Of a stretch of 35,700 bases of DNA, positions 1 to 35,700 are shown one piece after another. The notes beneath the pieces are model-generated. The model made no database searches. It was not told where the DNA came from and saw nothing but the letters and a program-made list of their open reading frames with translations. How positions within the stretch are numbered: position 1 is the stretch's first letter; every line of letters begins with the position of its first letter. Position numbers and translations under genes: made by a program. The stretch is from an uncultured Candidatus Peribacteria bacterium (lineage in GTDB: Bacteria > Patescibacteriota > Gracilibacteria > BD1-5 > UBA2023). The DNA is taken from positions 10,973 through 46,672 of the forward strand of contig CAYSEP010000002.1 in the NCBI GenBank assembly GCA_964430065.1, read 5' to 3'.

Positions 1-632
1 GTATCGAGAAGGTGGAAATTATGAGAAATAATAATAACCAACTTCGACATACTTCGCCACTTGTCGATCTCTTTCGACAGGATATCAATAGCACCAATAT
101 CGAGACCTGAGTCGATCTCATCGAGGACGATCACACGAGGATCAAGCAGAGCAATTTGGAGCATCTCTATGCGACGCTTCTCTCCTCCAGAGAATCCCAC
201 ATAGAGATCACGATCAAGGAACTTCGCATCGAGTCCATAGGTTGGCAGCATCTTCTCTACCATACGACGAAATATAAATGGCGTCGGTACCTTCTCTCCA
301 GGATGAGTACGAGTGAAATAGTGTACATAGATCGTGCGGAGATACTCGAGGAGACGTATCCCTGGGATCTCTGGAACAGATTGGAATGAGAGAAATATTC
401 CCTTCGTCGAAAGGATATCAGGACTGAGCCCTATCAGGCTCTCGTCATCGAGAGTAATATTTCCTGAGACTGTATAGCGTGGATGTCCGAAGAGGGCAAA
501 TGCGAGAGAAGATTTTCCACTTCCGTTGGTTCCGAGAAGCGCATACGTCTCTCCATGGTCGAATGTATAAGAAAAGTCTTTCACGATCTCCTTCTCTCCT
601 ACAGATACAGATATGTGATCCAAGATAAGCAT
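1..632 (-). CDS. sufC: Fe-S cluster assembly ATPase SufC; the C-terminal end runs off the window start
   Basis: ATG at 632-630. Hand translation gives MLILDHISVSVGEKEIVKDF...[26 protein letters not shown] (Walker A), VGFSGGEKRRIEMLQIALLDPRVIVLDEIDSGLDIGAI (ABC signature plus Walker B). It is collinear with E. coli SufC. It is missing from the ORF track because no stop lies inside the window. Confidence 0.85.
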   Translation of the reverse strand, partial: MLILDHISVSVGEKEIVKDFSYTFDHGETYALLGTNGSGKSSLAFALFGHPRYTVSGNITLDDESLIGLSPDILSTKGIFLSFQSVPEIPGIRLLEYLRTIYVHYFTRTHPGEKVPTPFIFRRMVEKMLPTYGLDAKFLDRDLYVGFSGGEKRRIEMLQIALLDPRVIVLDEIDSGLDIGAIDILSKEIDKWRSMSKLVIIISHNFHLLD

Positions 633-728
633 GTGCGTATGATAAGGATGCGGAGACAAAATGCAAAAGTTTTTCTCACGAGCAACAAAAAATCCCCTCA
701 TTTCTGAAGGGATTTTCTTATCTTTTCT

Positions 729-758
729 AAAAACCAAAAACCCTCGCCGAAGCGAGGG
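729..758 (-). terminator. Rho-independent terminator downstream of the S-layer gene
   Basis: On the minus strand the stem is CCCTCGC, the loop TTCG and the return arm GCGAGGG (741-758), followed by TTTTTGGTTTTT (729-740). It lies 38 nt after the stop at 796. Confidence 0.7.
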
Positions 759-795
759 AAGTTGGAAAACTTAAAGAGAAATATTCTCTAGAAAG

Positions 796-3729
796 TTAAG
801 GCATAGATGTAGCAGAAGCATTAGCCTCAGTACCAACATCGTATGATCGACTAACTGCAACACCGTTAACAACATATGAAACGTTGCTAGCAGAGATAGT
901 TACCTGATCTCCTGTCGCCCAACCTGGAACAGTATCCATATACACCTCAAAGCTCGTTGAAGAATTCTTTGTAAGTGGAACAGGTATTGTTGAAAGGTTA
1001 GCAAAGTAGAATGTGCCAGTAACACCCGCATTTACAGCAGTAACTGCGTTTGAGTATCCTGAATTCGTACAAGCATTCGTACCATTGCTTCCACCAACTT
1101 CTCTTATACAAAGAGGAGTGTTGATAGTAGGAGCAGTTCCGTTTGCAGTGTAACGATACTTGAACTCAAGGGTAATACCTGAAAGGGTAATACCAGTATT
1201 TGAGTCACCATTTGTAATAGTGATCTTAGCGATTGCCTTAGTACTTGCAAGAAGTTTTACAGAATCAACCTTGATTGAAGGTGGAACTACACTGATTGTG
1301 TATGCCTTCATAGTCGCAGTAAATGCTGGAAGTCCAACTGTAGCACCTCCATTTACTGTAGTTGCTGTAATATCTGTAGGACTGACAACACGAAGCTGTA
1401 TTCCAGAACCGTAGATTGAATCAAGAGTCTTAACTGTAGTAAATACTACCTTAATATTCTGATCTTCATCTTTAGCAATGTTATTAAACATGCCATCTAC
1501 GGTAATAGTATTACCTGAGATAGTAACAGTACCCTGAAGTTTTGCATCAGTAGCAACATTTCGAAGTTCGACACTAGAAGCATCTACAACGTTAGAAAGA
1601 AGAGCTGAACCAATGTTATTTACAACGAGTTTTGTTACACGAACCTCATCACCTTCAGCACGAAGAGCAAATCTTCCAGCTTCTTGGTTTGTTGCAGAAG
1701 AAATCTTATCATTAGAATTTCCTGTATTTACAGTAGCATTCTTAAGGGTAAGAGTAGGAGCTTGGATAGTAGTCTTATCACCTGTTACTGTATCAGTAAG
1801 GAGAGATACTGCATTATTAGCAGCATCACGAACATCCGAAAGTTTAACTTGGAATGTATAGTTCTGAGAACCAACGACAGTGTTCTTTACAGAAGAACCA
1901 ACGATCGTGATACGAGCAGCAGTAGCTGTATCCACAGGGATAGAAACTGTCTTAGTAATAGGAAGGGCCCAGTTATCACTAGAGGTGATAGTAGCAACCT
2001 CAGAACCATTTACCTTAACTGAAAGTTGATCATTCGCAAATGCAAGAACACCACTTCCAGTAGTTGGAATAGTGTTAATAATGAGCTGACGAACATTAAG
2101 CCCAACTGTAGAAGTTACCTTAGCATCGAAGAGAGTCACATTAGACGCCCCTGGAGCAACAGTAACGTTAGCAGAAGATTGTTTAGTATAAGTAACATCC
2201 ACGTTAGAGAATGTGACTAGCTCATTGAATGAAGCAAAACCAGTTGTAGTTGTAGAATAACCAGTTGCAACCTCAGTAGCTGAGACATCAGAAGATGAAT
2301 CAATCTTGAATCCGAGAGTATTAGTAGAGGCGCTTCCATCAACGAGAATGTCAGCCTTGATCTCGAATGACTGGAAGTTACCAGCAGCGAGAGCATTAGC
2401 AAGACCAGAAACAGAGAGCTTATCAGCAGTAACTGTAGCAGTACCGACAGCTACACCGTTCTTGTATACCTTAACGTTAGCAAACTTCTTCGTAAGATCG
2501 TTTGATCCGGAACGAGTAAGTGTGAATCCGTTTACAGTAACATCACGAGAACCAGCAGTAAGATCTACCTTAGCGATAGCCTGTTGAGTCTTACCTGGAG
2601 TAGCAGTGTAGTTAACAGAACCTCCAACAGTAATACTAGCTGTTACGTATGAAGTAGTGTTGAGAAGACCGAGAGTCACCGGAGCACCAGTAACCGTAGT
2701 ATTATCAGCATTTACCGCAGTAAGAGTGAACTGGTGTTGGCTATTCTCAGCACCTGAAAGGTTCACGAGGATATCTACTACCTGAGACGCACCAGCCTTA
2801 ACGACGAGAGCAGGGTAGAAGTATACAGTACCTACTTGAGAAGTAGCGTTGTAGAAGTCTGAAGAAGACGATACTACCACACCATTCTGAGCAGCACGGA
2901 TACCGTTATTTGCAGAGATATCAGCAGAGTTACCGAGACCAGAGCGAGTAACCGCAAGAGATCGAACAGTAACATCGCTAGATCCAGCCATAAGTTTAAC
3001 TGAACCAACCTTTACTGAAGATGCGTTCTTAGGAACGTATTGAGCCATAGCTGTCCCTTCGAGAGAGGCAGTAAGAGCACCCATAACAGTTCCAGTAGAA
3101 ACAACACCAGTTCCAGAAGGAGGAACAGGATCTACAGGATCGACAGGAAGCTCGAGACCTGCTGCACATGCAGCGATCTTAAATGCTTCACCGCGAGATG
3201 CAGAAGCATTTGGGCGGAAGTAGTCGTTGTCAGCTGCACATCCGAGCTCGTTAGCACGGTTTACATAACCAGCAAGGTCACCAAGGGCACTAAGGTCCAT
3301 GTAACCTGCATCTGCATCTGAAGGAAGTTCACCGAGAGCACCGAGGATCATTTTGACCATCTCAGCACGAGTGACATTCGCATCTGGGCGGAATGTAGTA
3401 GAAGCTGTAGAAACGATACCTGCGTCAGCAAGGGCCTCTACATATCCACAAAGAGAATGAGAAGCAGGAACATCTCCGTATGTATCGACACAAGTAAGTG
3501 CATCCATACCACCGAGATTAGCAACTACCTTTGCGAGTTCCGCGCGGGTGATGTTACTAGAAAGACGGTAACCAGCCTCAGTATTTGAGTTGATTACACC
3601 GTTGTCAGCAAGCAATTCAGCATAAGGAAGGAACCCAGAAGCAGCAGATACAAGTGATGCACTTGCAGAAGCAGCCACGAGAGTGACGATCCCAACACTA
3701 GAAGCAAGCTTCGTAAAGAAGTTACTCAT
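796..3729 (-). CDS. S-layer-type cell-surface protein: signal peptide, 3 N-terminal SLH-like repeats, PVDPVDPVPP linker, then about 5 Ser/Thr/Val-rich beta-domain repeats
   Basis: The track ORF is 796..3807. I prefer the internal ATG at 3729 (MSNFFTKLASSVGIVTLVAASASASLVSAAS looks like a signal peptide). There are three SLH-like units ending in ITRAELAKVV, VTRAEMVKMI and ASRGEAFKIA. Recurrent units of the type AIAKVDLTAGSRDVTVNGFTLTRSG follow. There are no in-frame TGA, a strong promoter and a terminator. Confidence 0.85.
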   Translation of the reverse strand: MSNFFTKLASSVGIVTLVAASASASLVSAASGFLPYAELLADNGVINSNTEAGYRLSSNITRAELAKVVANLGGMDALTCVDTYGDVPASHSLCGYVEALADAGIVSTASTTFRPDANVTRAEMVKMILGALGELPSDADAGYMDLSALGDLAGYVNRANELGCAADNDYFRPNASASRGEAFKIAACAAGLELPVDPVDPVPPSGTGVVSTGTVMGALTASLEGTAMAQYVPKNASSVKVGSVKLMAGSSDVTVRSLAVTRSGLGNSADISANNGIRAAQNGVVVSSSSDFYNATSQVGTVYFYPALVVKAGASQVVDILVNLSGAENSQHQFTLTAVNADNTTVTGAPVTLGLLNTTSYVTASITVGGSVNYTATPGKTQQAIAKVDLTAGSRDVTVNGFTLTRSGSNDLTKKFANVKVYKNGVAVGTATVTADKLSVSGLANALAAGNFQSFEIKADILVDGSASTNTLGFKIDSSSDVSATEVATGYSTTTTGFASFNELVTFSNVDVTYTKQSSANVTVAPGASNVTLFDAKVTSTVGLNVRQLIINTIPTTGSGVLAFANDQLSVKVNGSEVATITSSDNWALPITKTVSIPVDTATAARITIVGSSVKNTVVGSQNYTFQVKLSDVRDAANNAVSLLTDTVTGDKTTIQAPTLTLKNATVNTGNSNDKISSATNQEAGRFALRAEGDEVRVTKLVVNNIGSALLSNVVDASSVELRNVATDAKLQGTVTISGNTITVDGMFNNIAKDEDQNIKVVFTTVKTLDSIYGSGIQLRVVSPTDITATTVNGGATVGLPAFTATMKAYTISVVPPSIKVDSVKLLASTKAIAKITITNGDSNTGITLSGITLEFKYRYTANGTAPTINTPLCIREVGGSNGTNACTNSGYSNAVTAVNAGVTGTFYFANLSTIPVPLTKNSSTSFEVYMDTVPGWATGDQVTISASNVSYVVNGVAVSRSYDVGTEANASATSMP

Positions 3730-4019
3730 AATAATATATGGGTAAGAAAGTAAAAAGCGGATATCTCCGCATGACTGGAACAAAAGATAATCATGGTCAG
3801 TGATCATCAGGGTGATTTCTTCTGGTCAGGAAGAAATCGCCTTTTCTGCCACAAGGACAGAAGAGGTTAAAGCTTTAACCTCAAGTTATTTGCATAACGA
3901 GAGGATCTGGTCTCTATAAAGGAACCAAATCCTCTCCTTATACAGTGATTATCGAGGGGACCAAAGCTGAGGAAAATGATGTTAAAGAACATCTAGAGGG
4001 CGACAAGCCTCTAAAATAC
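3730..4019 (-). promoter_or_regulatory. Long (about 290 nt) hairpin-rich 5' leader of the S-layer mRNA
   Basis: Stem-loops: 3811-3841 (12 bp stem, 7-nt loop), 3841-3865, the palindrome gaggttaaag/ctttaacctc around 3863-3882, 3901-3934 (11 bp with one mismatch) and 3994-4013. The last one sits at the predicted 5' end of the transcript. No convincing ORF is present. Confidence 0.5.
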
Positions 4020-4026
4020 GCGGCTA

Positions 4027-4055
4027 ATAATATGGAAATGAGGGGGTAAAGTCAA
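4027..4055 (-). promoter_or_regulatory. Sigma70-like promoter of the S-layer gene
   Basis: On the minus strand: TTGACT (4055-4050), a 17-nt spacer, then TATTAT (4032-4027). This is a near-consensus -35/-10 with optimal spacing. The predicted TSS is around 4018-4020. Confidence 0.55.
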
Positions 4056-4267: not shown

Positions 4268-5782
4268 ATGGACCTTTTTTCTCTTCTTGCCCTTGTATGA
4301 GGGTCTTTTCTCGGTGCTCTCGTAGTCTGGCTCATATCCCAAAATAAAAATAAATCCCAAAGTACTCGCCTCATAAAAGAAGCTGAGGAACAGGCAAAAA
4401 CTATCATATCTCGAGCAGAAGAAACCAGAGAAAACACAAGACGCGAGATCGAAGAAGCAAAAAACGATCTTCGTGACCGCAAACAAAGCATCACCGAAAG
4501 TGAAGAGCGTCTTTCTGATAAAGAAAAACGTCTCGATGCCAAGTTCGAAGAAATCGATGGGAAACGTGTCGCTCTCCTCGAAAAAGAGAAATCGCTCGAA
4601 AATAAGCTCGAATCGGCAGACCAAAAATCTCGTGAGATCGAGGAAAAGCTCGAATCCGTAGCAAGACTTTCACAAGACGATGCCAAAGAGCTTCTGATGA
4701 AGTATACAGAAGAGCGCTACGAGAAAGATATCCTGAGCCTTATCGATAAAAAGAAAAAAGACCTAAAAACTCGTGAGCTCGAAGCCACTCGTGAGATCCT
4801 GATAAAATCTATCCAGCAATACGCTGGAGAGGTATGTGGTGAGACAACCCAAACTCTCGTAACTCTTCCGAGTGATGACCTGAAAGGAAAACTCATAGGA
4901 AAAGAAGGGCGAAATATCGTGGCATTCGAGAAGGCAACAGGAGTATCTCTTATCATAGACGATGCTCCAGATACGGTATTTCTCTCGAGCTTCGACCTGT
5001 TTCGTCGCTATATCGCCAAGAAGTCACTGGAAGAGCTCCTCGAAGATGGACGCATACAGCCAGCCCGCATAGAAGAAGTCGTCGAGAAAAACCAAAAAGA
5101 AGCAGATAAGCTCATCACGGACTTAGGGCGAAAAACCGTAGAAGAAATGAACGTGATCGGCATCCCCGACGAGATACTTCCACTCATCGGAAAGTTCCGA
5201 TTCCGCACGAGCTATGGACAAAATATCCTCATGCACTCGAAAGAGGTTGCCTATATCGCTGAAGCTATTGCCAAGATGATCGGTGCTGACCCAGTCCTTG
5301 CACTGAAGGGAGGACTTCTGCATGATCTCGGAAAAGCCATGGACCACGATATCGAGGGAACTCACCCGGAGATCGGCGGACGTATCGCTCGAAAATATGG
5401 GCTCGACGATAAGATAGTCAATATCATAGAAGGTCATCATGACGATGTGCCACAGATTTGTATAGAAACCAAGATCGTACAGATCGCCGACGCGATATCA
5501 GCAGTACGACCAGGCGCTCGTCGTATGAATGTCGAAGACTATGTGAAACGTATCCAAGAAATGGAAAATATTGCCATGAGTTACCCTGGTGTCGCGAAAG
5601 CCTATGCTCTCTCCGCAGGACGTGAAGTACGCGTATTTGTCGATGCAGACACCGTCTCTGATCTCGAGGCAGAGAAAAGAGCAGGAGAAATCGCAGCGCA
5701 GATCGAGGCGAACTGTAACTATCCAGGAGAAATCAAGGTTATTATCTTCCGCGAGAAAAGAATCGTTCAGTACGCGAAGTAA
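4268..5782 (+). CDS. rny: Ribonuclease Y (N-terminal TM helix, coiled coil, KH and HD domains)
   Basis: The track ORF 4697..5782 carries KH (LIGKEGRNIVAFEKATGV) and HD (LLHDLGKA...GHHDD) motifs. The same frame extends upstream through one TGA (4298-4300) to the ATG at 4268. This gives MDLFSLLALV-G-GSFLGALVVWLI (membrane anchor) plus a Glu/Lys-rich coiled coil, the canonical RNase Y layout. Confidence 0.9.
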
Positions 5783-5817: not shown

Positions 5818-6615
5818 ATGTACCCCACGATAGAATTTCTCGGCATCACGGTATATACTTTTGGGACACTTCTCTCTATTGCTTGGCTTTTGTTCTTTGT
5901 TCTCTTGCACCGATTTTCATGGAAAAAATGATTCACGAAACCGATATTTAGCTCTATCGTTCCTTTCACACTTTCTTTGTTTTTTTTCTCGCGGATTTTC
6001 TATATATTTTCTGAATGGGTAGAGGAGAAATACGTCCTCATGGAACTCGCTTATGGGCATATATTCTCTTTTTTAAGACTGTTTTTTATCCCGCAAGACT
6101 ATCACTTTTCTCTCTTCGGAGCGATATTTGGTTTTGGTTTGGTATTTATGATACTCACGAGCAAGAATAAAAAAGAACGCCCTGCATATCTCGATGTTAT
6201 TGCTCATGCATTCCTTTGGAGCGCTCTTCTCGGGTACTTCGCGGCCCTTCTCTGAGGGCAAATCTACGGGATAGCATGGAGCTCCCCAGTATCTCTCATA
6301 TACGACCACAAAAATAGTATCGTCACTGCCCGAAGTGCACTCTTTCCTCTCCCAATCGTCTATATGATACTCTGTGGGGGGATACTTTTCGCCCTTTCGA
6401 AAGTAACAAAACACTGACATCTTCCTGATGGGTACATAGGTTCTCTCGGGCTTGGACTGTTTGGTGTCACTATTTTTCTTTTTGATTTTCTTTCTGGAAA
6501 TAGGAAAGATATATTCTACGATTACTTCTCTCTCGGGATGAACCAGATCGGATGACTCATACTTGTACTCATAGCGGTTCTCGCTATCCTCAGAATTACT
6601 GGCAAAAAAATATAA
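5818..6615 (+). CDS. lgt: Polytopic membrane protein, divergent prolipoprotein diacylglyceryl transferase (Lgt)-like
   Basis: One frame is open from ATG 5818 to TAA 6613-6615, with 4 in-frame TGA and no TAA/TAG (checked triplet by triplet). By eye it is collinear with Lgt, for example ...LLGYFAALL-G-GQIYG where Lgt has G-R-x-G-N-F-x-N-x-E-L-x-G, and ...LFPLPIVYM... where Lgt has P-x-Q-L-Y-E. Several catalytic-motif residues differ. Confidence 0.55.
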
Positions 6616-6618: not shown

Positions 6619-8124
6619 ATGCCGCATTCTCGTCGTATTTTTCTGTTGTTTTCTCTTTCTCTCCTATTTGGGGTAATTTTTGGGGTAAATTTCTGGAATG
6701 GTGAATACTGGATTCCTGTTCTTATAGGAATCTCTATAATAGGTATTATTTGATACGCATTGAAAAGGGTTTTGCTGCTCAGTATCAGCATCAGTCTTTT
6801 ATGATTCTCCCTTGGGGCCATAAGTGGGTATATCTCATACCAATCACATGTGGGACACTTTCGTATACTCGAAAGGATAACACAGGGATTCGAAAAAAAG
6901 AGTCGTATAGAAGGCACCGTGGAGAAAGAAATTTCCCAAAAAGAACGATCGCGAGTTGTGCTTCTCAGGATCGACACGTTCGACAACTTCGACACAACTT
7001 CGACAATCAGTTTTTCTGGATTTTCTTTTTATAGAGAGGTTTCCAGACCTTCGATCTTTGTCGAAGTTCCCTCGAATCTCGACATCGAGGTCGGAGAACG
7101 CATCGCATTCGATGCCAAAATACGACCAAATATCACTTTTCCTCTCAGTGGATATGACCGATATGCATTTCATAAAGGTGGGTATGGATATGTGTTCCTT
7201 CCTTCGTGGAAAAACATATCCCCGAAGAAACATCCAAATTTCTGGAAAAATACTCGAACATCACTTGCCGAAAGTTACCACTCGATTTTTCCGCGCGATG
7301 TCGCAGGAGTTATCCTCGGGATGACAGTAGGATATACTGATCTTCTGAGTCCTGAGACCAAAAAAGCATTCATCCAAAGTGGAATCAGTCATATACTGGT
7401 CGTGAGTGGTTCAAATATTGCTTTTGTGATACTTTTTTTGGTATTTTTTCTGAAGTATATACCTACGAGACGCAAACTCGTACAAATACTTGTGGTAACC
7501 CTATTTCTCCTCCTCTATGGGATGCTCGTATCGTGGGAAGTATCCGTACTCCGCGCAACCATCATGGGCATACTTACCTACACCATAGCCTCTACTGGAA
7601 ACAGAGTCGCATCTCGTACGCCGCTGGCTCTGGCAATCATAGTCCTCTCACTCTCGGACCCTCTTGGTGTTCTCTATGATGCTGGATTTGCTCTCTCGTT
7701 TGGTGCTACTCTCGGGATCATTCTCTGTAAAGAACGTGTAGAATGGCTTTTATCGAAACTTGCTCTCCCGAAAAATCTGGCCCCGTATTTCTCCATCACA
7801 CTCTGAGCCTCGATCGGGAGTATACCAGCACTGGTATATCATTTTGGTACATTTTCACCACTTTCTATCATAGCAAATATCCTCATCGCATGAGTGCTTG
7901 GGTGGATTCTTTTTGGTTCTGTAGCACTTATCTTCATAGCGAAGTTCTCATCTTCTCTAAGTTTCGTATTCGGATATACTCTCTATGTTCCCGTAAAATA
8001 CCTGATGTGGGTAGGGAATTTTTTTGCTTCGTTTCCGAGTATCACATTCTCTCATGAACAAGCAATTCTCATTTCACTATTTTTGTATGGAGTTCTGATT
8101 ATGTTTTTTATACTCGATGATTAA
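6619..8124 (+). CDS. comEC: ComEC/Rec2-family DNA internalisation channel (OB/DUF4131-like N-terminus plus Competence domain, no C-terminal metallo-beta-lactamase domain)
   Basis: ATG 6619 lies 4 nt after the lgt stop. The frame runs through 4 TGA and joins track ORFs 6850..7806 and 7894..8124. It has the Competence-domain signature FIQSGISHILVVSGSNIAFV and multiple TM helices. Length is 501 aa. Confidence 0.8.
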
Positions 8125-8138
8125 GCATTATTTCCCAT

Positions 8139-8864
8139 TCAGAAAAGACTATTCACATCGACAGAGGAATTGACTCGTAGGGAGATATCTGCATCTTCGA
8201 GAAACACTTCAAGTGTCTTTCGGTATTCGCTCGTGATAAACGTAGCGTAGGTTCGTGCTGTTTTCTCAGGAAGGGTGACATTCCGGAGGGAAAGAAAAAA
8301 TGCGAAAAATGCTCCGACTGCATGGTCAGCATACATGCTCGTTTCTTTCGATGAGAGGAGAGAGAGAAGTTTCTGGGAAAGAACAATAGAAACCTCCTTT
8401 TCTCTGAGAAACTGACGAGAAAAATCTACCCAAAAACTCATCCAGTCACGTATCGCTGGATGGAGCGTCGAATCATCGAATGGTACTGGGGATCCGTAGT
8501 GGGGAAGCGCGAGAAATCGGTGAATCTCCTCATGTTTTCAGAGTTCTTTCAGGATATATTCGAGAGCTTCTGGGTAAAATAATGATATCGTCGCAAGTAT
8601 ATATCTCGATGGATACCCATGCTCGAGAAGTACTATCACCAGAGGGATAAGATCTTCATAGAGGGGATTTTGGATAAATCGGGCTAATATATGAAAGAGA
8701 GCATTATTATCTCACTTTGCTCTTTGTTCATCTTTTTGTGTTTTTTGGAGCTCTTTTTGTGCTTTTTTTGACGATTCTTTCTGGCGTTCACTTTTCTCAC
8801 TTGGGGCATCGGAAGAGGCTCCAACTCATTCGGAATTATCGAGATCCATATCATCGAGTGACAT
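8139..8864 (-). CDS. Hypothetical protein with a Lys/Glu/Gln-rich N-terminus
   Basis: The frame of track ORF 8139..8441 stays open upstream through 3 TGA to ATG 8864 (alternative ATG 8849), bounded by TAA at 8877-8879. I recognise no motif. It converges on comEC. Confidence 0.55.
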
Positions 8865-8915
8865 ACAGGAAGGGTATTATGGTATAGGATAGGCTTCACA
8901 GAGAGTCTTTACCTG

Positions 8916-10112
8916 TCATCGCAGCTTCTCTAGAACTTCATCGTTTTGGTGATTTTTGAGTGCTTCTATGATGATGCTCGTCACTTCTCGTACAGCGTCT
9001 TCTTTCATCCCACGAGTAGTTATAGCCGGCGTTCCGAGGCGGATACCAGATGGATCCATCGGTTTTCGTGGGTCGAACGGGATCATGTTTTTATTACAAG
9101 ATATTCCTGCTTTTTCCAGAGCATGTTCTGCCTCCTTTCCTGTGATTCCGAGAGAACCGAATACATCGAGCAATACTATATGGTTTTCTGTCCCTCCAGA
9201 TATGACTCTGATGTTATTTTCCTGGAATTTGTCTGACATGGCGATCGAATTGTCAATAACCTGTCGTGAGTAGCTCTGGAATTCTGGTTTTAGAGCTTCT
9301 CCGAAGGCAATAGCCTTCGCAAGGTTCGTGTGGTCATGTGGACCTCATTGGACTCATGGGAATACTGCACGAGCAATATCTGGACCATATTTTTCCTTCG
9401 CCATGATCATGGCACCACGAGGACCACGAAGCGTTTTATGGGTCGTAGTAGTTACTATATCACAGTATGGTACTGGATTTTCGAGAACTTTTCCTGCTAC
9501 GAGGCCTGCTATATGGGCAATATCAGCCATTAGTATCGCTCCTGTAGCGTCTGCTATCTCTCGGAATCGTTTCCAGTCGAGCGACCGAGAATATGCGGAG
9601 AATCCAGCAAGGATCAATTTCGGATGATGTTCTTTCGCGAGTCGTTCTACCTCGTCCATATTGATCCGCTCTGTTTCTTTATCAACAAGATAGGGAACGA
9701 TATTGTATGTCTTTCCTGAGAAGTTCAGTGGGTGACCGTGAGTGAGGTGTCCTCACTGATCGAGAGAGAGTCCGAGGATAGTATCTCCAGGAGAGAGTAC
9801 TGCGAGGAATACCGCAAGATTTGCTGGAGAACCAGAAAGTGGTTGGACATTTACATATTCAGCACCGAAAAGTGCTTTTGCTCGCTCTATAGCGAGATTT
9901 TCTGCCTGGTCGATAAATTCTTGTCCAGCATAGTAACGCTTTCCTGGGTAGCCTTCTGAGTATTTATTCGTAAGGATAGAACCATTGGCCTCGAGGACAG
10001 CATGAGACACATAGTTCTCACTCGCGATAAGTTCGAGTTCGTATTTTTGTCGATTTTCTTCTCAGATAAGGATATCGTAGGCAACGGGGTCTTGGTTTTG
10101 GATATATGACAT
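8916..10112 (-). CDS. glyA: Serine hydroxymethyltransferase
   Basis: Track fragments 8916..9239, 9354..9659 and 9753..10010 are one frame joined by TGA. Motifs include [18 protein letters not shown] and VFP-TGA-VQ-TGA-GPH, where E. coli GlyA has VFPGGQGGP. The ATG at 10112 gives [22 protein letters not shown]. Confidence 0.9.
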
Positions 10113-11448: not shown

Positions 11449-11725
11449 GGAAAATGATTCTCGAAGATATATAGGAAATAAGTGTAGGAAAATATAGGAA
11501 AAACACAAATCAATATATTTTCTTTTTTCACAATTATTTGACTGTCAAAAAGTAAAATAACTTCTCTTCCAAAAAAGGATACTATAGAATAAATCTTATT
11601 TCTTTGTAGAAAACTTTTGTTTTGATTTTCCTCTCTAATGAAGAAAAGAAATGAAACAAGGATATCTTATAATAATACTATAATATAAATTATAAAAAAC
11701 AGGTATTATTCTTTATAGGCTTCTC

Positions 11726-11753
11726 TTGTAAAAAAAGCATTTTCTTATACAAT
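11726..11753 (+). promoter_or_regulatory. Candidate promoter giving a near-leaderless transcript for the 11762 ORF
   Basis: TTGTAA (11726-11731), a 16-nt spacer, then TACAAT (11748-11753). The ATG at 11762 is only 8 nt after the -10 box. Confidence 0.35.
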
Positions 11754-11761
11754 TTCGACGT

Positions 11762-11983: not shown

Positions 11984-11986
11984 AAT

Positions 11987-13342: not shown

Positions 13343-13344
13343 AT

Positions 13345-25502: not shown

Positions 25503-26417
25503 CTAATGTCCCATCCTCAATATATCCTCATGGATACTATTCGCTGCGAGACACCCTTCCGCTGCTGACATGATGGTCTGGCGAAATTTGTTGCTATTCG
25601 TCGTCACATCTCCTGCTGCATAGAGACCCTTCACACTTGTTTCCTGTCGTTTATCTACGATAAGACAACCTTCACTATCTTTCTCTGGATTCATACCATC
25701 CACGATTCGAGTGAATGGTGATGACCCTATGGCGACGAATACACCATCTATCTTGAGTGTATCGCCAGTATTGAGCTTCACGCCGGTAACTCCCATCATA
25801 CCTCCTTCGACAGATGCGACTTGAGTATTATAGTGGAAAGTGATATTATTTCGTAGATTTGCTTTCTCCACCCAAATATCCTCAGCTCGAGAGCGGTCTC
25901 CACGTATGAGGATATGGACATGAGCGCAGAGATCGGCGAGGTAGAGAGCTTCTGTAATAGCCGTATTTCCACCACCGACTACTGCCACAGTGAGTCACTT
26001 ATAGAAATTCCCATCACACGTCGCACAGTAGGATACTCACTGTCCATAGTATTCCATTTCGCCAGGAGTACCGAGTTTTTTGTACTCATTTCCTGTGGCG
26101 AGGATCACTCGTTTCGCCTCATAGGTATCTCATTTCTGTGTCTTGATCTCGAAATGATCTTCGCCAATCTTCGACACAACTTCGACACGATCTTGTATAA
26201 GTGTCGATCCAGCAGTTTCTGCATGTTTACGAAAACTCTCCATGATCTCTCCTCCCGGGGCAGAGAGGACACCTGGCCAATTCTCGACACAGTGAGAGGT
26301 CGCGAGAGCTCCACCAGGAAGCTCTCCGATGATGATATTGTCGATCTTGTAGCGAGAAGCGTACATGCCCGCAGGAAGTCCAGCTGAGCCAGCGCCGATG
26401 ATGATGAGGTCGTGCAT
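25503..26417 (-). CDS. trxB: Thioredoxin-disulfide reductase
   Basis: Track ORFs 25503..25988 and 26130..26444 are joined through 3 TGA. Motifs: DLIIIGAGSAG (FAD), VSYCATCDG (redox CxxC), VAVVGGGNTAITEALYL (NADPH), AAGDVT. I chose the start at 26417 (MHDLIIIG); ATG 26444 is an alternative. Confidence 0.88.
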
Positions 26418-26470
26418 AAAGTAGTTAATGAGATTAATTCTCATTATATATAAAAAAAGAATATTGCAAA

Positions 26471-27022
26471 TTAGACTGCTTGTTTTTCTACAATAGCTTG
26501 AGGGATATGAGCATTTCGATATGCCTGGATGACGTTATTGATCCGACGGCAGTTCTCGATAGGATCTGGAGCGTAGTTCACGATCATGTTCGATGTCTCA
26601 CTCGCTGTATGGATATGGACATCCCCGAATCCAAATATCGTCTGGAAAATCCCTGTTGTATGAGCATTGACCTCTTGTACTCGATCGAGTGAGCATTCCG
26701 TCACGCTTCGAGAAAGGGCTGAGATCTGGTCTATACCAATGATTCGAGAGTCTGTGATGATGAATATGTCGAGCTCATCATTGATCCAGTCGAGAAGGAT
26801 AAATGTGAGAAATATAATCCAGTAGAGCGCCATCCCTCACCAGTAGAGCGCACTTCCGATAATATCAATAATCCTATCCTGATAAGAGAGTAGTATCCAT
26901 GATGTCACGAACAGTGCAACGAAATATGAGAAATGGAACAATAGAATAATCCAATGACGGTGAAGCGTCATAATAATCTGTTCATTTTCTTTTAAGAGTG
27001 AGATATGTTCTTTTTTGACCAT
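26471..27022 (-). CDS. Membrane protein with a bacterial PH (bPH_2/YdbS-like) domain
   Basis: Track ORFs 26837..27022 and 26471..26833 are one frame joined by TGA at 26837-26839. It has two TM helices (HRHWIILLFHFSYFVALFV, ALYWIIFLTFILLDW) followed by ELDIFIITDSRIIGIDQ...GDVHIHTA. This is the typical bPH topology, assigned by eye only. Confidence 0.6.
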
Positions 27023-27561
27023 GTGATATGGGGGTCTTTAAGATAGATGGGAGCAAGTCTTTCTTCTCATGTTTTTTCCCGAAAGAGAGAAACGATATGG
27101 GGGAAGTCGTAGGTATATTCTATGAAGTTTTTCCCTTCTGTAAAATCATTTTTGTTCCCATATCCGACATAATCATCGTTCGCCAACTTCGACATGTCTG
27201 ACATGTCGAACATCTGTGTCGAAGATGGTCATATTTGCACTATATATTCGCGATCATTTGCCTTCAGTACTCACACTCATCTCTCGATCGTGTCGAAGAA
27301 GTGGCAAGACTTCAGTGTGATATCCCGTGTGAGCCTGAGGCTCGAGAGAGTCAATGTGACAATCCTCATACGAGTGAACGCTCCTGGTCAGACGATGCAC
27401 CATATTTCTTCTATAGCATATTTATCCAGAAGTCAGACGATGGTTTCTGGAAACTGACTAAAATCATCTCACTTTGGAAGTGAGACCTGTGTGACTATTT
27501 CAGAACCATTGAGGACGAATATTTCGATATTTTCAGATACAGGATTGATAAAGAGTTCCAT
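26992..27561 (-). CDS. tsaB: tRNA t6A37 biosynthesis protein TsaB (YeaZ)-like
   Basis: It is not in the ORF track because it carries 9 in-frame TGA. The frame is open from ATG 27561 (alternative 27597) to TAA 26992-26994. Translation is MELFINPVSENIEIFVLNG...EEIWCIV-G-PGAFTRMRIVTLTLSSL (the GPGSFTGLRIG-type motif) ...LAPIYLKDP. The 3' end overlaps the next gene by 31 nt. Confidence 0.62.
27188..27210. repeat. Perfect 23-bp palindrome inside tsaB
   Basis: TTCGACATGTC-T-GACATGTCGAA has 11-nt arms and a 1-nt centre. The arms contain the over-represented GTCGAA(G/C) word. Confidence 0.9.
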
Positions 27562-27607
27562 AGAAAAAGTATATGGAAAATCATTTTTTTGTCACATTTA
27601 TCTTGAG

Positions 27608-29119
27608 CTAGACGCCACGATAGGAGAGCGCTTCAAGGACATGGCGAACTTCGACATCTGGCGAACGATCGATATCGGCGATCGTACGAGCAACACGAAG
27701 TATCCTATAGTAGACACGAGTCGAGAGGTGGAGTCGCTCTGTCGAAGATATGGCGATCTTTCTTGCTTCTTCGGAGATTTTGGCGAAGGTGTCGATGTCG
27801 GTATTCGACATTTCTGCATTTCTGTGAAGTCTGGTTCCGTGGAATCTCCCTCTCTGGATCCCACGAGTTTCTTCTACGATTTCTGCGTAGTCTCGAGTCG
27901 TCTTTTCTCACTTCTTCCCTTCGAGTTCGCCCGGTTTCACCCGAGGAACCTGGATAAAAATATCGATACGATCGAGGATCGGACCTGAGAGGCGTCCACG
28001 ATACCGTTCGATCGCATGAGGACTACAGATGCAGGATTTCTCAGGATCTCCCATATAACCACAAGGACAGGGGTTCATAGCACCCACCAGAGAGAATCGA
28101 CTCGGATAACGACAACTCATATTCACACGGTTGATCGTGATCTCGCCGTCTTCGAGCGGCTGACGAAGGGTCTCGAGGATATGTTTGTCGAACTCGAGGA
28201 ACTCATCGAGAAAGAGCACTCACTTATGAGCGAGGGATATCTCTCCTGGTCGTGAATCTCGGCCCCCTCAGATAATCGATGCCTCGCTTGCCGTGTGGTG
28301 GATGATACGAAATGGGCGTTCTCGTACGATCGGCATATCCCGAGTCAGGAGCCCTGCGACGGAGTATATCTTCGAGAGCTCGATCTGCTCTTCGATATCC
28401 ATAGAGGGAAGTATACCAGCGAGAGCCTTCGCAAGCATCGTCTTTCCAGAACCAGGAGGACCCTGCATGAGGATATTGTGCCCGCCCGCTGCTGCGATGA
28501 GGAGAGCACGCTTCGCTTGTTCCTGACCATGGATCGAAGAGAAATCGACTATCATACGGGTTCGAGGAATACTTTCTATATCGAGTTTTTCTGCTGGTTT
28601 CATAAGCACCGTTCCCTCTAGGATATCGACGACTTCTGAGAGTCTCTCGACGGCGATGACATCGATCCCGGGAATGACGGATGCTTCTTCTCGGTTCGCT
28701 ATCGGGAGAAATACTCGCTTCATACCGATCTCTCGAGCGAGTATGGTAGCAGGGAGAGCTCACTGGACTCAGCGTATCACTCCGTCGAGTGCGAGTTCTC
28801 CGAGAAAAAGAGAACTTCCGAGTATCTCCTCGTCGAAGGCGATCTCTTTCGCGAGGATGCCGAGAGCGATCGGGAGATCGTAGATCGGTCACTTCTTACG
28901 AAGGTCTGCTGGTGCGAGATTCACGGTGATGCGTGCTCCGCCAGGGAAGCTATATCCAGAGTTCTTCACAGCAGCTCGGACACGCTCGCGAGACTCCTGT
29001 ACAGCAGTATCTCCGAGTCCGACGACCGTAAACTGTCCCATTCCTGTGATGACATCAACCTCGACTTCGACGAGCTGACCAGAGATCCCTGCGAGGGAGG
29101 TAGAAAAAAGTTTTTGCAT
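27608..29119 (-). CDS. comM: Mg-chelatase-like AAA+ protein ComM/YifB
   Basis: Four track fragments (27608.., 27908.., 28268.., 28889..) share one frame and are joined by TGA only (gaps checked). Motifs: [56 protein letters not shown] and NPCPCGY. ATG is at 29119 ([11 protein letters not shown]). Confidence 0.88.
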
Positions 29120-29339
29120 ACGAATATGGTACAAAAATTTCTAACAAATTTCTAAACTTTCGGACATATTTTTCGAAATTGTATTGCAACTTCTGTTCTT
29201 TCATGCAAAAATATATGAATTGTCTGGTAAAGTTCTTTTTTCCGCATTTCTCTCGTCTTGTAAAGTCAAAAGCAAGTACAATATTTGGTTTCATACCAGA
29301 TTTCTGATACTATGACGAGAGTTAGCCGTATTCTCTCTC

Positions 29340-32300
29340 ATGATTTTTCGTATTTTCGCATCTGTACTTCTCTTCCTCATTTCCGAGGAAACCTTTGCCA
29401 TACAAACACGAGTGGCGACGAATAGTGAGCAAGAGAAATGAGTATTTTCTGCACTCTGGGATACTATCCTCTATGTTACGGAAAACATCATCAATATCAT
29501 CATCTTTGTCCTCATCGCGTGGATGCTTCTGAAAGTTATCCGTCTTGCCTATGAGGTCCTCATGGCGGGGCGCCTGATCTATATGAAGGTGACGCTTCCC
29601 CGTGCCGACTCGAAGCTCGACAAAGAACGCGAAACCAAAAAAGACTTCAAGGAAAAGGTCGGTATCATGTCTGTCTTCTATAAGTCTGTCCATAATCTCA
29701 CTCAGTCGAGCGCGCTCGATACGATCATGAATGTGATATTTCGCCATGCGAAGATCTCTCTCGAGCTTATGTATCATGACGGACAAGTGCATTTCTACGC
29801 TGTCGGATACAAAGAGCACCTCTCGCTCGTCGTCCAGCAGATCACCTCGAACTATCCCGATGCGGAAGTGAAACTGATCGACCGAAAGGATTTTCCTGAG
29901 ATCAAACCACTTGGATTCACCCTTCAGGCGGCTTCTATCAGCAAAGACAATGACGATGTCTACCCGATAAAGACCTATAAATACTTCGAAGATGATCCAC
30001 TTTCGACTTTCACGAATAATTTCTGATCACTCAAGAAAACTGACGTCGCCTCGATCCAGCTCGTCGTGAAGCCACTCGGCCACTCATGGAACCGTAAAGC
30101 GAAAAAAGCAGCAGGTCTCGTCGCAAAAGGAGAATATAAAAAAGGAATCAAATCTGGACTTCTCGTCTCGATTTTTAAGGGTATCACCGCGCCGATAGCA
30201 TGGCTTTTCTTTCGTTTCCTAAAAAATGAGGAAACCGGAAGTAATGCTCCAGGAGCGACAGGAGGCGACTCATATAAGATATTTAACCAAGCTGAGACAG
30301 AAGCGCAAAAAATGGTCGGAGAGTCTGCGGGTCAGCCAGGATTCCGTGCGAGTATGCGTATCCTCGTCTCATCTGATACGAGTGCATCTGCCAGAAGCGC
30401 ACTCCAGAACCTGGTCGCTGCGACTTCGATATTCACGGATGAGTATAATAACCGACTCGGTAACCCTCAGATGATCGAAGATCCGCTGCGGTTTATCTTC
30501 ACTCCACTTCGCTACTTCGCGTACCGATTCCGACTTGTCTGAGTCATGCAGGGAATCAGTAATTTCTCTTGTGACGAACTCTCGACACTCTACCACTTTC
30601 CTGATATCAACTACAATAAGTCTCCCATTATCAGCTGGCTCGAATACAAAATGCTCTCACCTCCGTCGAATCTCCGATTTCCGAAAGAGCCACTTATCAT
30701 GAAGGACTATAAGCGTGATGCAAAAGGAAACATCTTCACCGAAGATGGATCACTCCTTCGGGTGGATAAAAATAAAAACCTCGAAAGAAGTGCCGACAAG
30801 GACCTCATCCTTCTCGATGGTACTATCGTCCCTGTAGCAAAAGAAGGGGAAAATATCGGAAAGCCACTCGATACCGGAAAGACTCCAATCCAGATCGACG
30901 AACAGCGCAAGCTCCAAGGATTTCCTCTCTATAAAGATGGAGTATTGATGGGATGGAACGAATACCGAAATAATAAAACTCCGATTTATTTCTCGAAAAA
31001 AGATCGTGGACGACATCACTATATCATAGGAAAGTCAGGATGAGGAAAGTCAGTATTTATCGGCTATCTTGCCCGTCAAGACCTCTGGAATGGTGAGGGT
31101 CTCTGTGTCATCGATCCGCATGGCGACCTCGTCGAAGATATCGTCGCCTTCACTCCGAAAGAGCGCGCGAAAGATATGATCATCTTCGATCCTGCCGACT
31201 ATGAGCGCCCAATGGGACTGAATATGCTCGATCTCATCGCGACGGATCCGAGTCTGCGTATGATCGAGAAAGATCGTGCGGCACTCGATGCAACCTCAAT
31301 CTTTATCAAGATGTATGGAGATGAGATATTTGGACCCCGTATCCAACACTACTTCCGAAATGGGTGTCTGACTCTCATGGATGACGAAGAAGAAGGGGGA
31401 ACACTTATCGATGTTCCACGACTTTTCGTCGATGAGGCCTTCATGAAGTATAAGACATCGAAGATCAAGAATGTGATGGTAAAAGCTTTCTGGGAACATG
31501 AATATGCTCAGACGGGAGATCGTGAGAAGCAGGAGATGATCCCATTTTTCTCAGCGAAATTCGGTCCATTTATTACCAATACGACGATGCGAAATATCAT
31601 CGGTCAGACGAAATCCGCCTTCAACATCCGACAGGTGATGGACGAACAAAAAGTCCTCATGGTGAATCTCTCGAAAGGAAAGATCGGAGATCTTAATGCA
31701 CAACTTCTGGGTCTCATCATGGTCTCGAAGATCAATATGGCGGCGATGAGTCGTGCAGACATGCGAGAAGAAGACCGAAGAGATTTCTATCTCTATGTCG
31801 ATGAGTTCCAGAATTTCGCTACTGACACGTTCGGAGAAATCCTCTCAGAAGCTCGTAAGTACCGACTGGCCCTTATCATGGCTCACCAGTTCATCGCACA
31901 GATCGGAGGATCAGGAGATAAGCAAGGGAAATGAGGGAAACCGTCGATCAAAGACGCTGTCTTCGGAAATGCGGGGACGATCATGTCGTTCAAGGTCGGT
32001 GCTGAAGATGCCGAGTATCTCGAAAAGGAATATGCACCATCCCTTTCTCAGCAAGATATCATCGGTATCGCGAACTTCACGACCTACTGTAAGCTCAATA
32101 TCGATAACGCGACGACTCGACCGTTTGACCTGAAAACCATCTGGGACAACACGTATAAAAACGCGGAAGTCAGCAAAATCATAAAAGAGTATTCTCGAAA
32201 AATGTATGGTCGCAAAAAAGAATATGTCGATATGGAGATCGAAGCCCGTATGGGAATCGTACGAGAAGAGGACAAAGAGCCTCCAGCTTGAGATACAACC

Positions 32301-32357
32301 ACTACTCCAACGATCACACCAGATACTCCTCCAGCTTCGACAGAATCTTCACAATAA
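29340..32357 (+). CDS. Type IV secretion coupling-protein-like ATPase (VirD4/TraG/TraD family) with an N-terminal extension of about 560 aa
   Basis: The frame runs from ATG 29340 to TAA 32355-32357 and joins 5 track ORFs through TGA only. The N-terminus has a signal-like segment plus a TM helix (IINIIIFVLIAWMLL). Walker A is HHYIIGKSG-TGA-GKS (TGA at 31041-31043), followed by CVIDPHGDL. Walker B is FYLYVDEFQNF, then LALIMAHQFIAQI. The tail is Thr/Pro-rich. Confidence 0.8.
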
Positions 32358-32372
32358 CTCATTCCTTCCACC

Positions 32373-33575
32373 ATGCTTCACCGCATTCTTCCCATCATCG
32401 TCCTTCTCCTTGTCATACTTGATACGACAGTGCTTTTTGGATTCGGAGGGTCTGGGCCACTTGCAGGTTTTGTGATTTCGATGAAGCCCTTTGCTTACGG
32501 TATAGTCCTCATCGGACTTCCTCTCCTCTACTTTATCGTCTATAAGGCGTATATCGGACCTGTACAGCGACTCAATCAGAGCATCGCGAAGTTCATGACG
32601 GGGATCGACGAAGAGCCCAACCTCGAAGCGAATAGCTGGAGCAAAGGAATGAACTATATTATTAATTTCTTCATAAAAAGTCTCCAAATTCTGAAAGTCT
32701 TCAAACAAGAACTCCGTGATGGTCGAAAACTCCGCTCAGAAGTCGAGATCGCCTCAGAAATCCAGAAGCGAGTGATCGCGAGTGAGACGAGTATCGTCCC
32801 ATCTCTGGAGATCGCCATGGCGAGTTGTCCCGCATCTGAAGTGGGAGGGGATTCACTCGATATCATCCCTGGAAAAAATGGAAACTACTATATCTATGTC
32901 GGTGATGTGACATGACACGGGGTTCCGAGTGGATTCGTCATGATGATGGTGAATGCTCTGGTATCAGCATTTGTCGTATCGGAAGAGAGTAGTGCTCGAG
33001 TCCTCTCCGAGACGAACCGCATCCTGAAGCCTCGTATCAAGCAAAATATGATGATGACCTGTGTCATGCTTCGCTGGAATGAACCACACAAGATGCTCTA
33101 CTATACAGGAGGCTGACATGAGTATCTTCTCGTCTATAAAGCAAAGGAGAATAAAGTCTACAAAATAAAATCAGGTTGAGTCGCCCTTGGTATGGTTCGA
33201 GATTCTTCGAAAGCGATGATAGAGCAACAGATCCTCTTCGAGAAAGAAGATATCATCATCCTCTATACTGACGGCATCACGGAAGCTCGCTACCGCAGTG
33301 AACAAAATTGACTTCTTTTCGGAATCGATAGAATAGTCGAGTCCATAATGAAAGTGGAGGTAAAAACGGCAGAAAACATATTCCGTCATCTCACTATAGA
33401 TCTCTCCTCGTTCATGGGATACAAGCACAAACAATACGACGATATCACTCTCTTCGTCGCTCGAAATGTGGGCTCCTGAGGTATCACTCTCTCCTCTATT
33501 CCCGACGCGATAGATCCTGCGAACATTACCGAATGGAACTGGTGAAAAAAACTCGCAGAACCAAAAATACTCTAA
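32373..33575 (+). CDS. Membrane-anchored PP2C/SpoIIE-family serine phosphatase with a HAMP-like linker
   Basis: It has two N-terminal TM helices and a HAMP-like YIGPVQRLNQSIAKFMTG. PPM motifs are EIASEIQKRV, SEVGGDSLDI, YVGDVT-TGA-HGVPSGFVM and ILYTDGITEA. There are 6 in-frame TGA. The start lies 15 nt after the upstream stop. Confidence 0.8.
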
Positions 33576-33587
33576 AAAATTTCTCTC

Positions 33588-35555
33588 ATGGCGGTCCCTT
33601 CTCTCGCAGAACTCATCACGAAAAACTACACCGGAGATGTCGAATGACTCGAATCTCGGGGAGTGAATTTCGTCGCGTCTTCGTGAGAAACCATGGTAGC
33701 GTCTCTAGCAGAGCCAGAAGACATCACTCCACAAATAGTGACTCTTCCTTCGCCAACTTCGACACCTTCGCCAGTCACTGTCGATCTCGAGGATCCGACT
33801 CGTAAACTCTCGAAAGAAGAAGCAGAAGAGCTCAAAAAAACGGAAAAAGAATATAAAGAAGCTCTCGCCTTCATAAAGGATATGATCGCTCCTGCGATGA
33901 TGCGTATCGATGCGACGAAGCTCCAGATCGGGGATACCTATATCCGCACGATATTTACCTATGCATACCCCGATGTACTCGAAGGGAACTGGCTCTCACC
34001 GCTCATAAACTGGGATGTGAAGTTCGATGTATCGATGTTCATCTACCCTATCGACTCTTCTCGTGTCATGAAGTATCTGAGAAAGCGTCTCACGCAACTT
34101 CGCTCTCAGTACGCGATCAACCGTGAGAAATGACTCATCAGCGATCCGCACCTCGACGCACAGATGCAAGATGTCGAAGAACTTCAGGTTTCACTGACTC
34201 GTGGTCAGGAGAAATACTTCCACTTCTCGCTCTACGTCACGACGTATGCAGAAAGCGAAGAAGAGATGAAGCGCCTCTCGAATACGCTCGATGTCATGCT
34301 TGCAGGGCGTAATATCCTCACGAAACAATCATTTCTCCGTTCCGAACAAGGATTCGTCGCGACAGGTCCGTTTGCTCGAGACGAGGTGAATGTCTTTCGA
34401 AATATATCCACAAAAGGTCTTTCGACGACTTTCCCTTTCAGTTCCAATAGCCTTTCGCAGGATGATGGTATATTCTATGGAATCAATACTCATAATAATT
34501 CGCTTATCATCTTCGATAGATTCAAAACAGAAAATGCGAATATGTGTGTCTTCGCGAAATCTGGATGAGGAAAGTCATTTGCTGTGAAGCTCGAGATCCT
34601 CCGCGCCCTCATGCTCGGGACGGATGTCATCGTCCTCGATCCAGAGAATGAATATCGTGCTCTCGTCGATACTGTCGGAGGAACATATCTGAATATCAAT
34701 CTAAACTCTGATGAGCGGATCAATCCATTTGACCTTCCACGAGGACTCAAAGACACAGAAGCACACCCAGGAGATCTCCTGCGCGGTGCGGTCGTGAATA
34801 TGCTCGGACTCCTCCATCTTATGCTCGGAGTTATCACTCCTTCCGAAGAAGCGCTTCTCGAACGAGGACTGATCACTACCTACTCACTGAAGGGGATCAC
34901 CATGGAAGATGACTCTGCAGAAGGGAAAGAAATCCCACTCATGAAAGACCTTCTCTCTGTCCTGGAGACGATGGACTGAGCTCGCGGGCTTGTCGAGCGT
35001 CTCGACAAATATGTCACAGGAATATTTGCTGGAGTTTTCTCGGAACATACGAATGTGAACCTGAAAGATGGACTCGTCGTCTTCTCGGTCCGAGATCTCG
35101 ATGATATCCTCCGACCGATCGCTATGTATATCCTCCTTGGCTACGTGTGGAATATCGCTCGTTCCTCTGAGAAAAAACGTATGCTCGTCGTGGATGAAGC
35201 GTGGAATATCATGCAGTACGAAGACTCTGCGAAGTTCCTCTTCGGTCTCGTGAAACGTGCTCGTAAATACGGACTCGGTGTCACGACGATCACACAGGAT
35301 GTCGAAGACTTCATGACGAACCAGTATGGGAAAGCGATCGTGACCAACTCCTCGATCCAACTCCTCTTGAAGCAGTCTCCTGCCTCGATCGATGTCCTCC
35401 AGGATGTCTTCAAGCTCACGGAACAAGAGAAATATATCCTCCTGAATGCCTGAGTCGGTACAGGACTCTTCTTCGCCTGAGGAGAACATGTCGGTATCCA
35501 GATCCTTGCTTCGTACTTCGAAGAGAAGATCATCACCACGAAGCCGAATGTGTAA
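33588..35555 (+). CDS. VirB4/TrbE/TraC-like type IV secretion ATPase
   Basis: The frame joins track ORFs 33693.., 34164.., 34584.. and 35055.. through TGA. Walker A is VFAKSG-TGA-GKSFAVK (TGA at 34566-34568), followed by VIVLDPENEY. Walker B is MLVVDEAWNIM, then GVTTITQDVEDF. The start is either 33588 or 33693. Confidence 0.82.
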
Positions 35556-35562
35556 ACTATAG

Positions 35563-35592
35563 AAAAATCCCCCGCAATCGCAGGGGATTTTT
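35563..35592. terminator. Hairpin terminator after the VirB4-like gene; it may also serve the converging minus-strand ORF
   Basis: AAAAATCCCCCGC, loop AATC, GCAGGGGATTTTT (one mismatch), flanked by A and T runs. It begins 8 nt after the stop at 35553-35555. Confidence 0.7.
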
Positions 35593-35598
35593 AGATTT

Positions 35599-35700
35599 TT
35601 ACGCTCCTCTCTTTTCGCACTCAGGGGTGAGGCGAGAGAGTGTGGCTATTATGTGTTTGGGTTTTTGTGTCCCTCAGCGCACGTCGACGACGTGGTAATT
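35599..35700 (-). CDS. Possible 3' end of a converging CDS that continues beyond the window
   Basis: The open frame reads ...NYHVVDVR-G-GTQKPKHIIATLSRLTPECEKRGA, stop at 35599-35601, just before the shared hairpin. It is too short to identify. Confidence 0.3.

Follow-up and report, generated by a model that had tools for sequence, protein, structure and literature searches.

Genes and reading frames of the window

The DNA considered here is a stretch of 35,700 nucleotides (the window, always meant at its whole length) from contig CAYSEP010000002.1, positions 10,973 to 46,672, of assembly GCA_964430065.1, which was deposited as an uncultured Candidatus Peribacteria bacterium; its subject is the meaning of the codon TGA in the genes of this organism. 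With the standard bacterial code (NCBI translation table 11) the window appears as 66 short overlapping open reading frames (ORFs), and when TGA is read as a sense codon long non-overlapping frames are obtained; the part covered by ORFs of at least 150 amino acids then rises from 54% to 99%. Five control loci of standard code, found in the same search, had coverages of 86–92% with either code. Judged from its sequence, the window belongs with high confidence to an uncultured bacterium of the Gracilibacteria (BD1-5 type) from wastewater or activated sludge, which uses NCBI translation table 25, i.e., UGA for glycine, only UAA and UAG as stops, UGG for tryptophan, and CGA and CGG for arginine.

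A map of 21 genes was established from the TGA-sense frames and was checked by Pfam matches and by conservation in relatives. The latter came from one UvrA scan of species-representative genomes, which yielded L001, a syntenic relative whose DNA is 75–78% identical along some 21 kb, as well as a dozen more. The genes are listed with their coordinates, strand, evidence and number of in-frame TGA codons:

3..737, minus strand: ABC transporter ATPase, partial, running past the window edge; Pfam ABC_tran 1.2e-16; 0 TGA
796..3807, minus strand: surface (S-layer-like) protein with SLH domain, 1003 amino acids; Pfam SLH 5.9e-16; 0 TGA versus 82 GGN
4268..5782, plus strand: RNase Y, 504 amino acids; Pfam RNase_Y_N (residues 16-188), KH, HD; 1 TGA
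5818..6615, plus strand: membrane protein like prolipoprotein diacylglyceryl transferase (Lgt); Pfam LGT 9.4e-8; 4 TGA
6619..8124, plus strand: ComEC competence channel protein; Pfam Competence 3.1e-44; 4 TGA
8121..8864, minus strand: conserved protein with no assigned function, 247 amino acids; amino acid identity 70% to L001 and 43% to L003; no Pfam match; 4 TGA
8877..10112, minus strand: serine hydroxymethyltransferase (SHMT, glyA); Pfam SHMT 1.3e-153; 5 TGA, including 9354-9356 and 9345-9347
10195..11508, minus strand: S41 C-terminal processing peptidase with PDZ domain; Pfam Peptidase_S41 7e-47; 18 TGA versus 23 GGN
11987..13342, plus strand: conserved protein with no assigned function, 451 amino acids; 92% amino acid identity to one unbroken ORF of L001, conserved also in L003, L008, L010 and L038; 11 TGA
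13345..14538, plus strand: conserved protein with no assigned function, 397 amino acids; 73% amino acid identity to L001; no Pfam match; 3 TGA
14550..15941, plus strand: M17 leucyl aminopeptidase (PepA); Pfam Peptidase_M17 1.8e-90; 5 TGA, including 15312-15314
15941..16549, plus strand: ComF-like protein with phosphoribosyltransferase (PRTase) domain; weak Pfam Pribosyltran / PRTase-CE; conserved in L001-L003 and L008; 1 TGA
16604..19453, plus strand: UvrA, 949 amino acids; PDB 2r6f 1.4e-287, end to end; 17 TGA, including 16751, 18824-18829 and 19112
19489..25395, minus strand: giant surface protein with Ig-like repeats and SLH domain, 1968 amino acids; Pfam Bact_surface_Ig-like 1.3e-137 (11 stretches), HYR, SLH; 42 TGA
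25503..26444, minus strand: thioredoxin-reductase-like flavoprotein; Pfam Pyr_redox_2 1.6e-46; 94% amino acid identity to L001; 3 TGA
26471..27022, minus strand: bacterial PH-domain (bPH_2) protein; Pfam bPH_2 3.4e-7; 1 TGA
26992..27597, minus strand: conserved protein with no assigned function, 201 amino acids; conserved in L001, L002, L003 and L005; 8 TGA versus 5 GGN
27608..29134, minus strand: ComM (Mg-chelatase-like AAA+ competence helicase); Pfam Mg_chelatase 2e-88; 6 TGA, including 28220-28222
29184..32357, plus strand: protein like type IV secretion coupling proteins (TraD/VirD4-like ATPase), 1057 amino acids; Pfam T4SS-DNA_transf 1.1e-10, TrwB_AAD_bind; 7 TGA
32373..33575, plus strand: SpoIIE/PP2C-type serine phosphatase; Pfam SpoIIE 6.5e-35; 6 TGA, one of them (32913-32915) within the metal-binding motif GDVTxHG
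33588..35555, plus strand: TraG/VirB4-like P-loop ATPase; Pfam P-loop_TraG 4.2e-24; 7 TGA

These genes hold about 11,300 codons, with 153 in-frame TGA and not one in-frame TAA or TAG; among the 20 complete genes the terminator is TAA in 16, TAG in 4 and TGA in none. The conserved C-termini of homologues coincide with the TAA or TAG stops, and the full-length UvrA, SHMT, PepA and ComM proteins align end to end with their homologues. With table 11, UvrA is cut at 17 places, the giant surface protein at 42, and RNase Y loses its N-terminal 143 amino acids. An earlier interpretation from the letters alone (the sequence-only reading) had stated that the ORF track was systematically fragmented and that TGA was the only interruption within genes, which is what the counts above bear out; the eight sites which it had singled out (UvrA 16751, 18824-18829 and 19112; PepA 15312; SHMT 9354 and 9345; SpoIIE, there called PP2C, 32913; ComM 28220) are all TGA, in frame, and in the contexts described.

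The genes are tightly packed, and in this compactness they resemble those of the CPR group (Candidate Phyla Radiation). The TAA of pepA overlaps the ATG of the ComF-like gene (TAATG, 15939-15943); other close gene pairs have gaps of 2-12 bases or overlap, e.g., at 8121-8124, 13342/13345 and 26992-27022. Several additional long ORFs, antisense to the genes, open when TGA is sense, at 10273-11481 (plus), 11690-13105 (minus), 20041-22611 (plus) and 30219-33434 (minus); they were discarded as spurious, since they had no Pfam match or were disrupted in relatives. The frame of 11690-13105, for example, which runs antisense over the gene at 11987..13342, is broken in L001.

It might be thought that the TGAs are true stops, and that the window consists of pseudogenes or contains sequencing or assembly errors, since nearly every gene is broken when table 11 is applied. 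The interruptions are, however, exclusively TGA, and the interrupted proteins are 87–94% identical to those of the relative whose DNA is 75–78% identical; moreover, TGA is found at many of the same columns in relatives. At least 10 separate studies of wastewater or activated sludge gave Logan contigs which contain the UvrA stretch of the window, TGAs included; the organism is thus widespread in these habitats. Contigs from independent samples were base-identical across the TGAs, those of the best sample across seven of them. Among the strain differences listed, nearly all, by our own frame count, fell on the third base of a codon when the frame is read through TGA. Pseudogenes or errors are therefore an extremely improbable explanation. 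Look-ups of exact proteins among the contigs gave no match for the SLH protein, nor for SHMT, whether translated with code 4 or with code 25.

The amino acid at TGA

For the identification of the amino acid, TGA was translated as X, so that the comparison was neutral as to the residue, and the proteins were aligned to PDB homologues from standard-code organisms. Over five proteins, glycine was found at 30 of the 44 aligned TGA columns and tryptophan at none (binomial P about 5e-23 at a glycine background of 8%), distributed as follows:

UvrA versus PDB 2r6f: glycine at 13 of 17 TGA columns
SHMT versus PDB 3pgy: glycine at 3 of 5 TGA columns (R, G, G, G, E)
PepA versus PDB 8pz0: glycine at 4 of 5 TGA columns (G, A, G, G, G)
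S41 peptidase versus PDB 4c2c: glycine at 6 of 11 aligned TGA columns
ComM versus PDB 8rxd: glycine at 4 of 6 TGA columns (G, G, A, G, G, L)

A further, weak alignment of the SpoIIE phosphatase to PDB 6k4e gave glycine at 2 of 4 columns, among them the GDVTxHG site, where 'gdvtXhgvp' pairs with 'vdcaGhgvp'.

A column profile was also calculated for UvrA, which had been aligned by MAFFT to 42 UvrA sequences free of in-frame TGA. Glycine made up at least 78% of the residues in 12 of the 17 TGA columns, and was invariant or nearly so in 9; the others were variable. In columns 50, 741, 742 and 837 it was present in 41-42 of the 42 standard-code sequences. The summed log-odds (in nats) were +24.5 for glycine, -18.3 for asparagine as the next residue, and -38.1 for tryptophan, which is a lead of about 43 nats for glycine; the same method gave the right residue for the ordinary codons of the window in the case of G, W, R, N, D and C. 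The proposal that the TGAs fall on invariant glycines thus applies to the sites originally named, which are glycine in the standard-code UvrA sequences or in the best PDB homologue, but not to every TGA, since about a third are in variable columns.

Natural variation within the population pointed in the same direction. Contigs of samples X2 and X4, two other data sets from wastewater or activated sludge, carry a T>G exchange at position 17534, by which the TGA at 17534..17536 (plus strand; UvrA residue 311) becomes GGA; the corresponding column is glycine in 41 of the 42 standard-code UvrA sequences. This variant is a synonymous exchange of TGA and GGA at the population level.

When the codons of the window were compared with the residues and codons in 12 related loci, TGA was paired with GGN in 165 of 447 cases and with TGA in 131, and the GGN codons of the window showed the same pattern of pairing. 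Tryptophan was not among the commonest residues opposite the window TGA. The TGG codons behaved differently from TGA: they stood opposite tryptophan in 92 of 133 cases and opposite TGA in 3. This agrees with the original statement that TGG still encodes tryptophan and that code 4 does not fit.

Table 4, in which UGA is tryptophan, is known from Mycoplasmatales, from endosymbionts of insects and from part of the Eggerthellaceae (PMC13462651); the same stop codon has been captured in these systems, with the same fragmentation of ORFs under table 11. Since tables 4 and 25 open identical frames, the two cannot be separated by the length of ORFs alone. The decision comes from the residue: no PDB-aligned TGA column has tryptophan, which also had the poorest of the log-odds listed for UvrA; TGA is exchanged with GGN in relatives and not with TGG; and a translation as tryptophan would triple the tryptophan content, to 1.9%. 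Because TGG still pairs with tryptophan and the TGA columns are not tryptophan columns, code 4 was excluded, and decoding as tryptophan appears very improbable.

Placement of the organism and a candidate tRNA

The assignment of UGA to glycine is known only from the Gracilibacteria (BD1-5) and the Absconditabacteria (SR1), which together form the GTDB class JAEDAM01 (PMC8629427, PMC13695967); table 25 in these groups goes back to Campbell 2013 and Rinke 2013 (as cited in PMC8629427), and proteomic proof was provided for a BD1-5 bacterium (PMC4032931). The sequence-only reading had relied on this restricted distribution, on which the literature agrees with it, and had maintained that the code places the organism. 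The placement was confirmed with a maximum-likelihood tree of UvrA, a single gene, with names as given by NCBI: the window and L001 were contained in a clade of 13 sequences with support of 100/100, most of them labelled Candidatus Gracilibacteria metagenome-assembled genomes (MAGs). In 12 of the 13 sequences there were 6-42 in-frame TGA codons; the exception by its UvrA count was L004, whose other genes use TGA as sense.

The name under which the genomes were deposited was of little help. Four MAGs labelled 'uncultured Candidatus Peribacteria' (L001, L007, L011 and L038) use TGA as sense and are located within the Gracilibacteria clade. Two others with the Peribacteria label, L026 and L056, have a UvrA without in-frame TGA and an unchanged ORF coverage, and are outside of the clade. 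The NCBI label is therefore no guide to the genetic code.

In the Absconditabacteria a variant is known, detected in a Codetta screen, in which CGA and CGG are also reassigned, to tryptophan (PMC8629427). The window shares UGA as glycine with this variant and differs from it in the other two codons: in near relatives its 116 CGA codons paired with arginine in 246 of 415 cases, and its CGG codons (only 19, a small sample) with arginine in 39 and lysine in 20 of 77 cases. The columns were mainly arginine or lysine and in no case mainly tryptophan; hence the additional reassignment of the Absconditabacteria type is absent, which fits BD1-5 better than SR1. No difference of substance was seen between the window and the lineages with table 25, which have the same meanings of UGA and UGG and the same two stops; the nearest representative retrieved was L001, at the DNA identity given above, and the species itself was absent from the representatives obtained. 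The sequence-only reading was thus right in its observation as well as in its interpretation. Code 25 is already known for Gracilibacteria, and the organism is an unremarkable representative of its lineage.

The established mechanism of this reassignment consists of a tRNA-Gly with anticodon UCA together with the loss of release factor 2 (RF2) (PMC8629427, PMC13695967), and the latter has been reported for lineages with reassigned TGA in general (PMC13695967). Going by the mechanism of its lineage, the window organism would decode UGA with a dedicated tRNA-Gly(UCA), would have lost RF2, and would terminate at UAA and UAG by means of RF1. When metagenomes were scanned with the TraG-like protein, which is widely conserved among TGA-sense metagenome contigs, 80 related loci were obtained. 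Scans for tRNA genes in 15 genome loci and 60 metagenome loci yielded one tRNA(UCA), in the relative L126, where reading TGA as sense increases the ORF coverage from 22% to 84%. This tRNA has 76 nucleotides plus an encoded CCA, a variable region of 4 nucleotides, and G1:C72, C2:G71, G3:C70 and U73, which is the set of glycine identity elements as used by Shulgina and Eddy (PMC8629427). It is located at 3164-3242 (minus strand) of L126; its anticodon stem has apparently 6 base pairs (CUAAGG/CCUUGG), and cmscan shows one extra base.

The program ARAGORN labels this molecule, wrongly, as a tRNA for selenocysteine, a label which might be taken to favor a reading of TGA as selenocysteine or as a site of programmed read-through. 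The glycine identity of the acceptor stem and the lack of the long variable arm of tRNA-Sec do not agree with the label. In addition, 153 sites in 35.7 kb would be far too many, the TGA columns are glycine and not cysteine or selenocysteine, and no Rfam family, selenocysteine insertion sequence (SECIS) elements included, was detected in the window. This reading has a negligible probability, the smallest of those considered here.

The L126 tRNA was then compared with samples which hold the window organism, and exactly one contig each was obtained from X1 and X4. Both contigs differ from the L126 tRNA at 7 of 79 nucleotides (91% identity), and their flanks are identical to each other. In X1 the tRNA contig had a depth of 8.53, compared with 8.32 for the window UvrA contigs, and in X4 the depths were 5.44 and 4-7, respectively. 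Over 52 nucleotides, comprising the 5' half together with the anticodon arm, the contigs from X1 and X4 and a further one from X5 had at most one difference. Sample X2 contained an exact unitig of 31 nucleotides with the anticodon, at a depth of 70, which is near the sum of the three flanking variants joined to it (46.2, 18.3 and 5.9); the variant at 18.3 is close to the depth of the window organism there (about 19-24). At 100% likeness the L126 tRNA had no match in X1 or X4, and for this reason the anticodon of the copy in these two samples is inferred.

Several observations weigh against the assignment of table 25 to the window organism, or at least against its link with this tRNA. About a third of the TGA columns pair with residues other than glycine; these are variable columns, as would be expected for any glycine codon, and the GGN codons of the window behave alike. 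The window itself lacks tRNA genes, and the Pfam matches of its proteins included no release factor. Sample X3 holds DNA of the window and gave no tRNA contig. The tRNA contig is tied to the window organism only by the matching depth and by co-occurrence; shared flanking repeats, which could have linked the two, were not found. The copy in the samples supports, without proving, that the window organism possesses a tRNA-Gly(UCA).

Gene content, uneven use of TGA, and consequences

Genes for uptake or transfer of DNA are abundant in the window (ComEC, the ComF-like PRTase, ComM, and the VirD4/TraD-like and TraG/VirB4-like ATPases). The genes for ComM and the latter two ATPases, with the SpoIIE phosphatase gene between them, are syntenic in L003. 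In six relatives (L082, L083, L086, L088, L098 and L102) the TraG-like gene is followed, 0.2-4 kb downstream, by a tRNA-Arg(CCU); only 145 bases remain in the window past its own TraG-like gene, and the equivalent position lies outside.

The use of TGA differed considerably between genes. Its share of all glycine codons of the window is about 16%; in the S-layer-like gene (796-3807) it is 0 of 82 (binomial p 1e-6), and in the S41 peptidase gene (10195-11508) it is 18 of 41 (0.44; p 3e-5). High shares were also found in two of the genes with no assigned function, namely 11 of 28 (11987-13342) and 8 of 13 (26992-27597). The genes richest in TGA are contained in a region of low GC (10195-14538; gene GC of 0.33-0.38 versus about 0.44 elsewhere). 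Over the 21 genes the correlation between gene GC and TGA share was weak (Spearman -0.34, p 0.13). In relatives, the homologues of the S-layer gene had TGA shares of 0/111 (L004), 0/78 (L013) and 9/86 (L008), on rough backgrounds of 11%, 20% and 68%, respectively.

Such an uneven use, and the avoidance of TGA in S-layer homologues which is common to relatives, could be explained by a dual meaning of UGA, mostly glycine but still a stop in certain contexts or at a certain rate. Yet no gene of the window requires a TGA stop, the conserved C-termini being followed by TAA or TAG; the uneven use is explained equally well by the usual codon bias of genes with high expression; and, as mentioned, loss of RF2 has been reported for lineages with reassigned TGA in general (PMC13695967). 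A dual meaning is thus very unlikely, although it is the least improbable of the alternatives to plain decoding as glycine. The distribution suggests that UGA is selected against where expression is high. Because the S-layer homologues of relatives avoid TGA too, the uneven use is probably due to selection, likely linked to expression, and not to recent horizontal transfer.

The importance of these results is practical, not conceptual. With table 11 about half of the coding sequence of the window is lost or fragmented, and therefore annotation, domain searches and structure predictions on this contig need table 25; table 4 would place 153 tryptophans wrongly. As to the biology of the group, it may be proposed tentatively, and with some doubt on our part, that UGA is a costly or slow codon for glycine, which selection purges throughout the clade from the most highly expressed genes. 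If this were true, the density of TGA per gene could be used as a proxy for expression, and it would perhaps be a hint that in bacteria with code 25 some competition or misreading persists at UGA.

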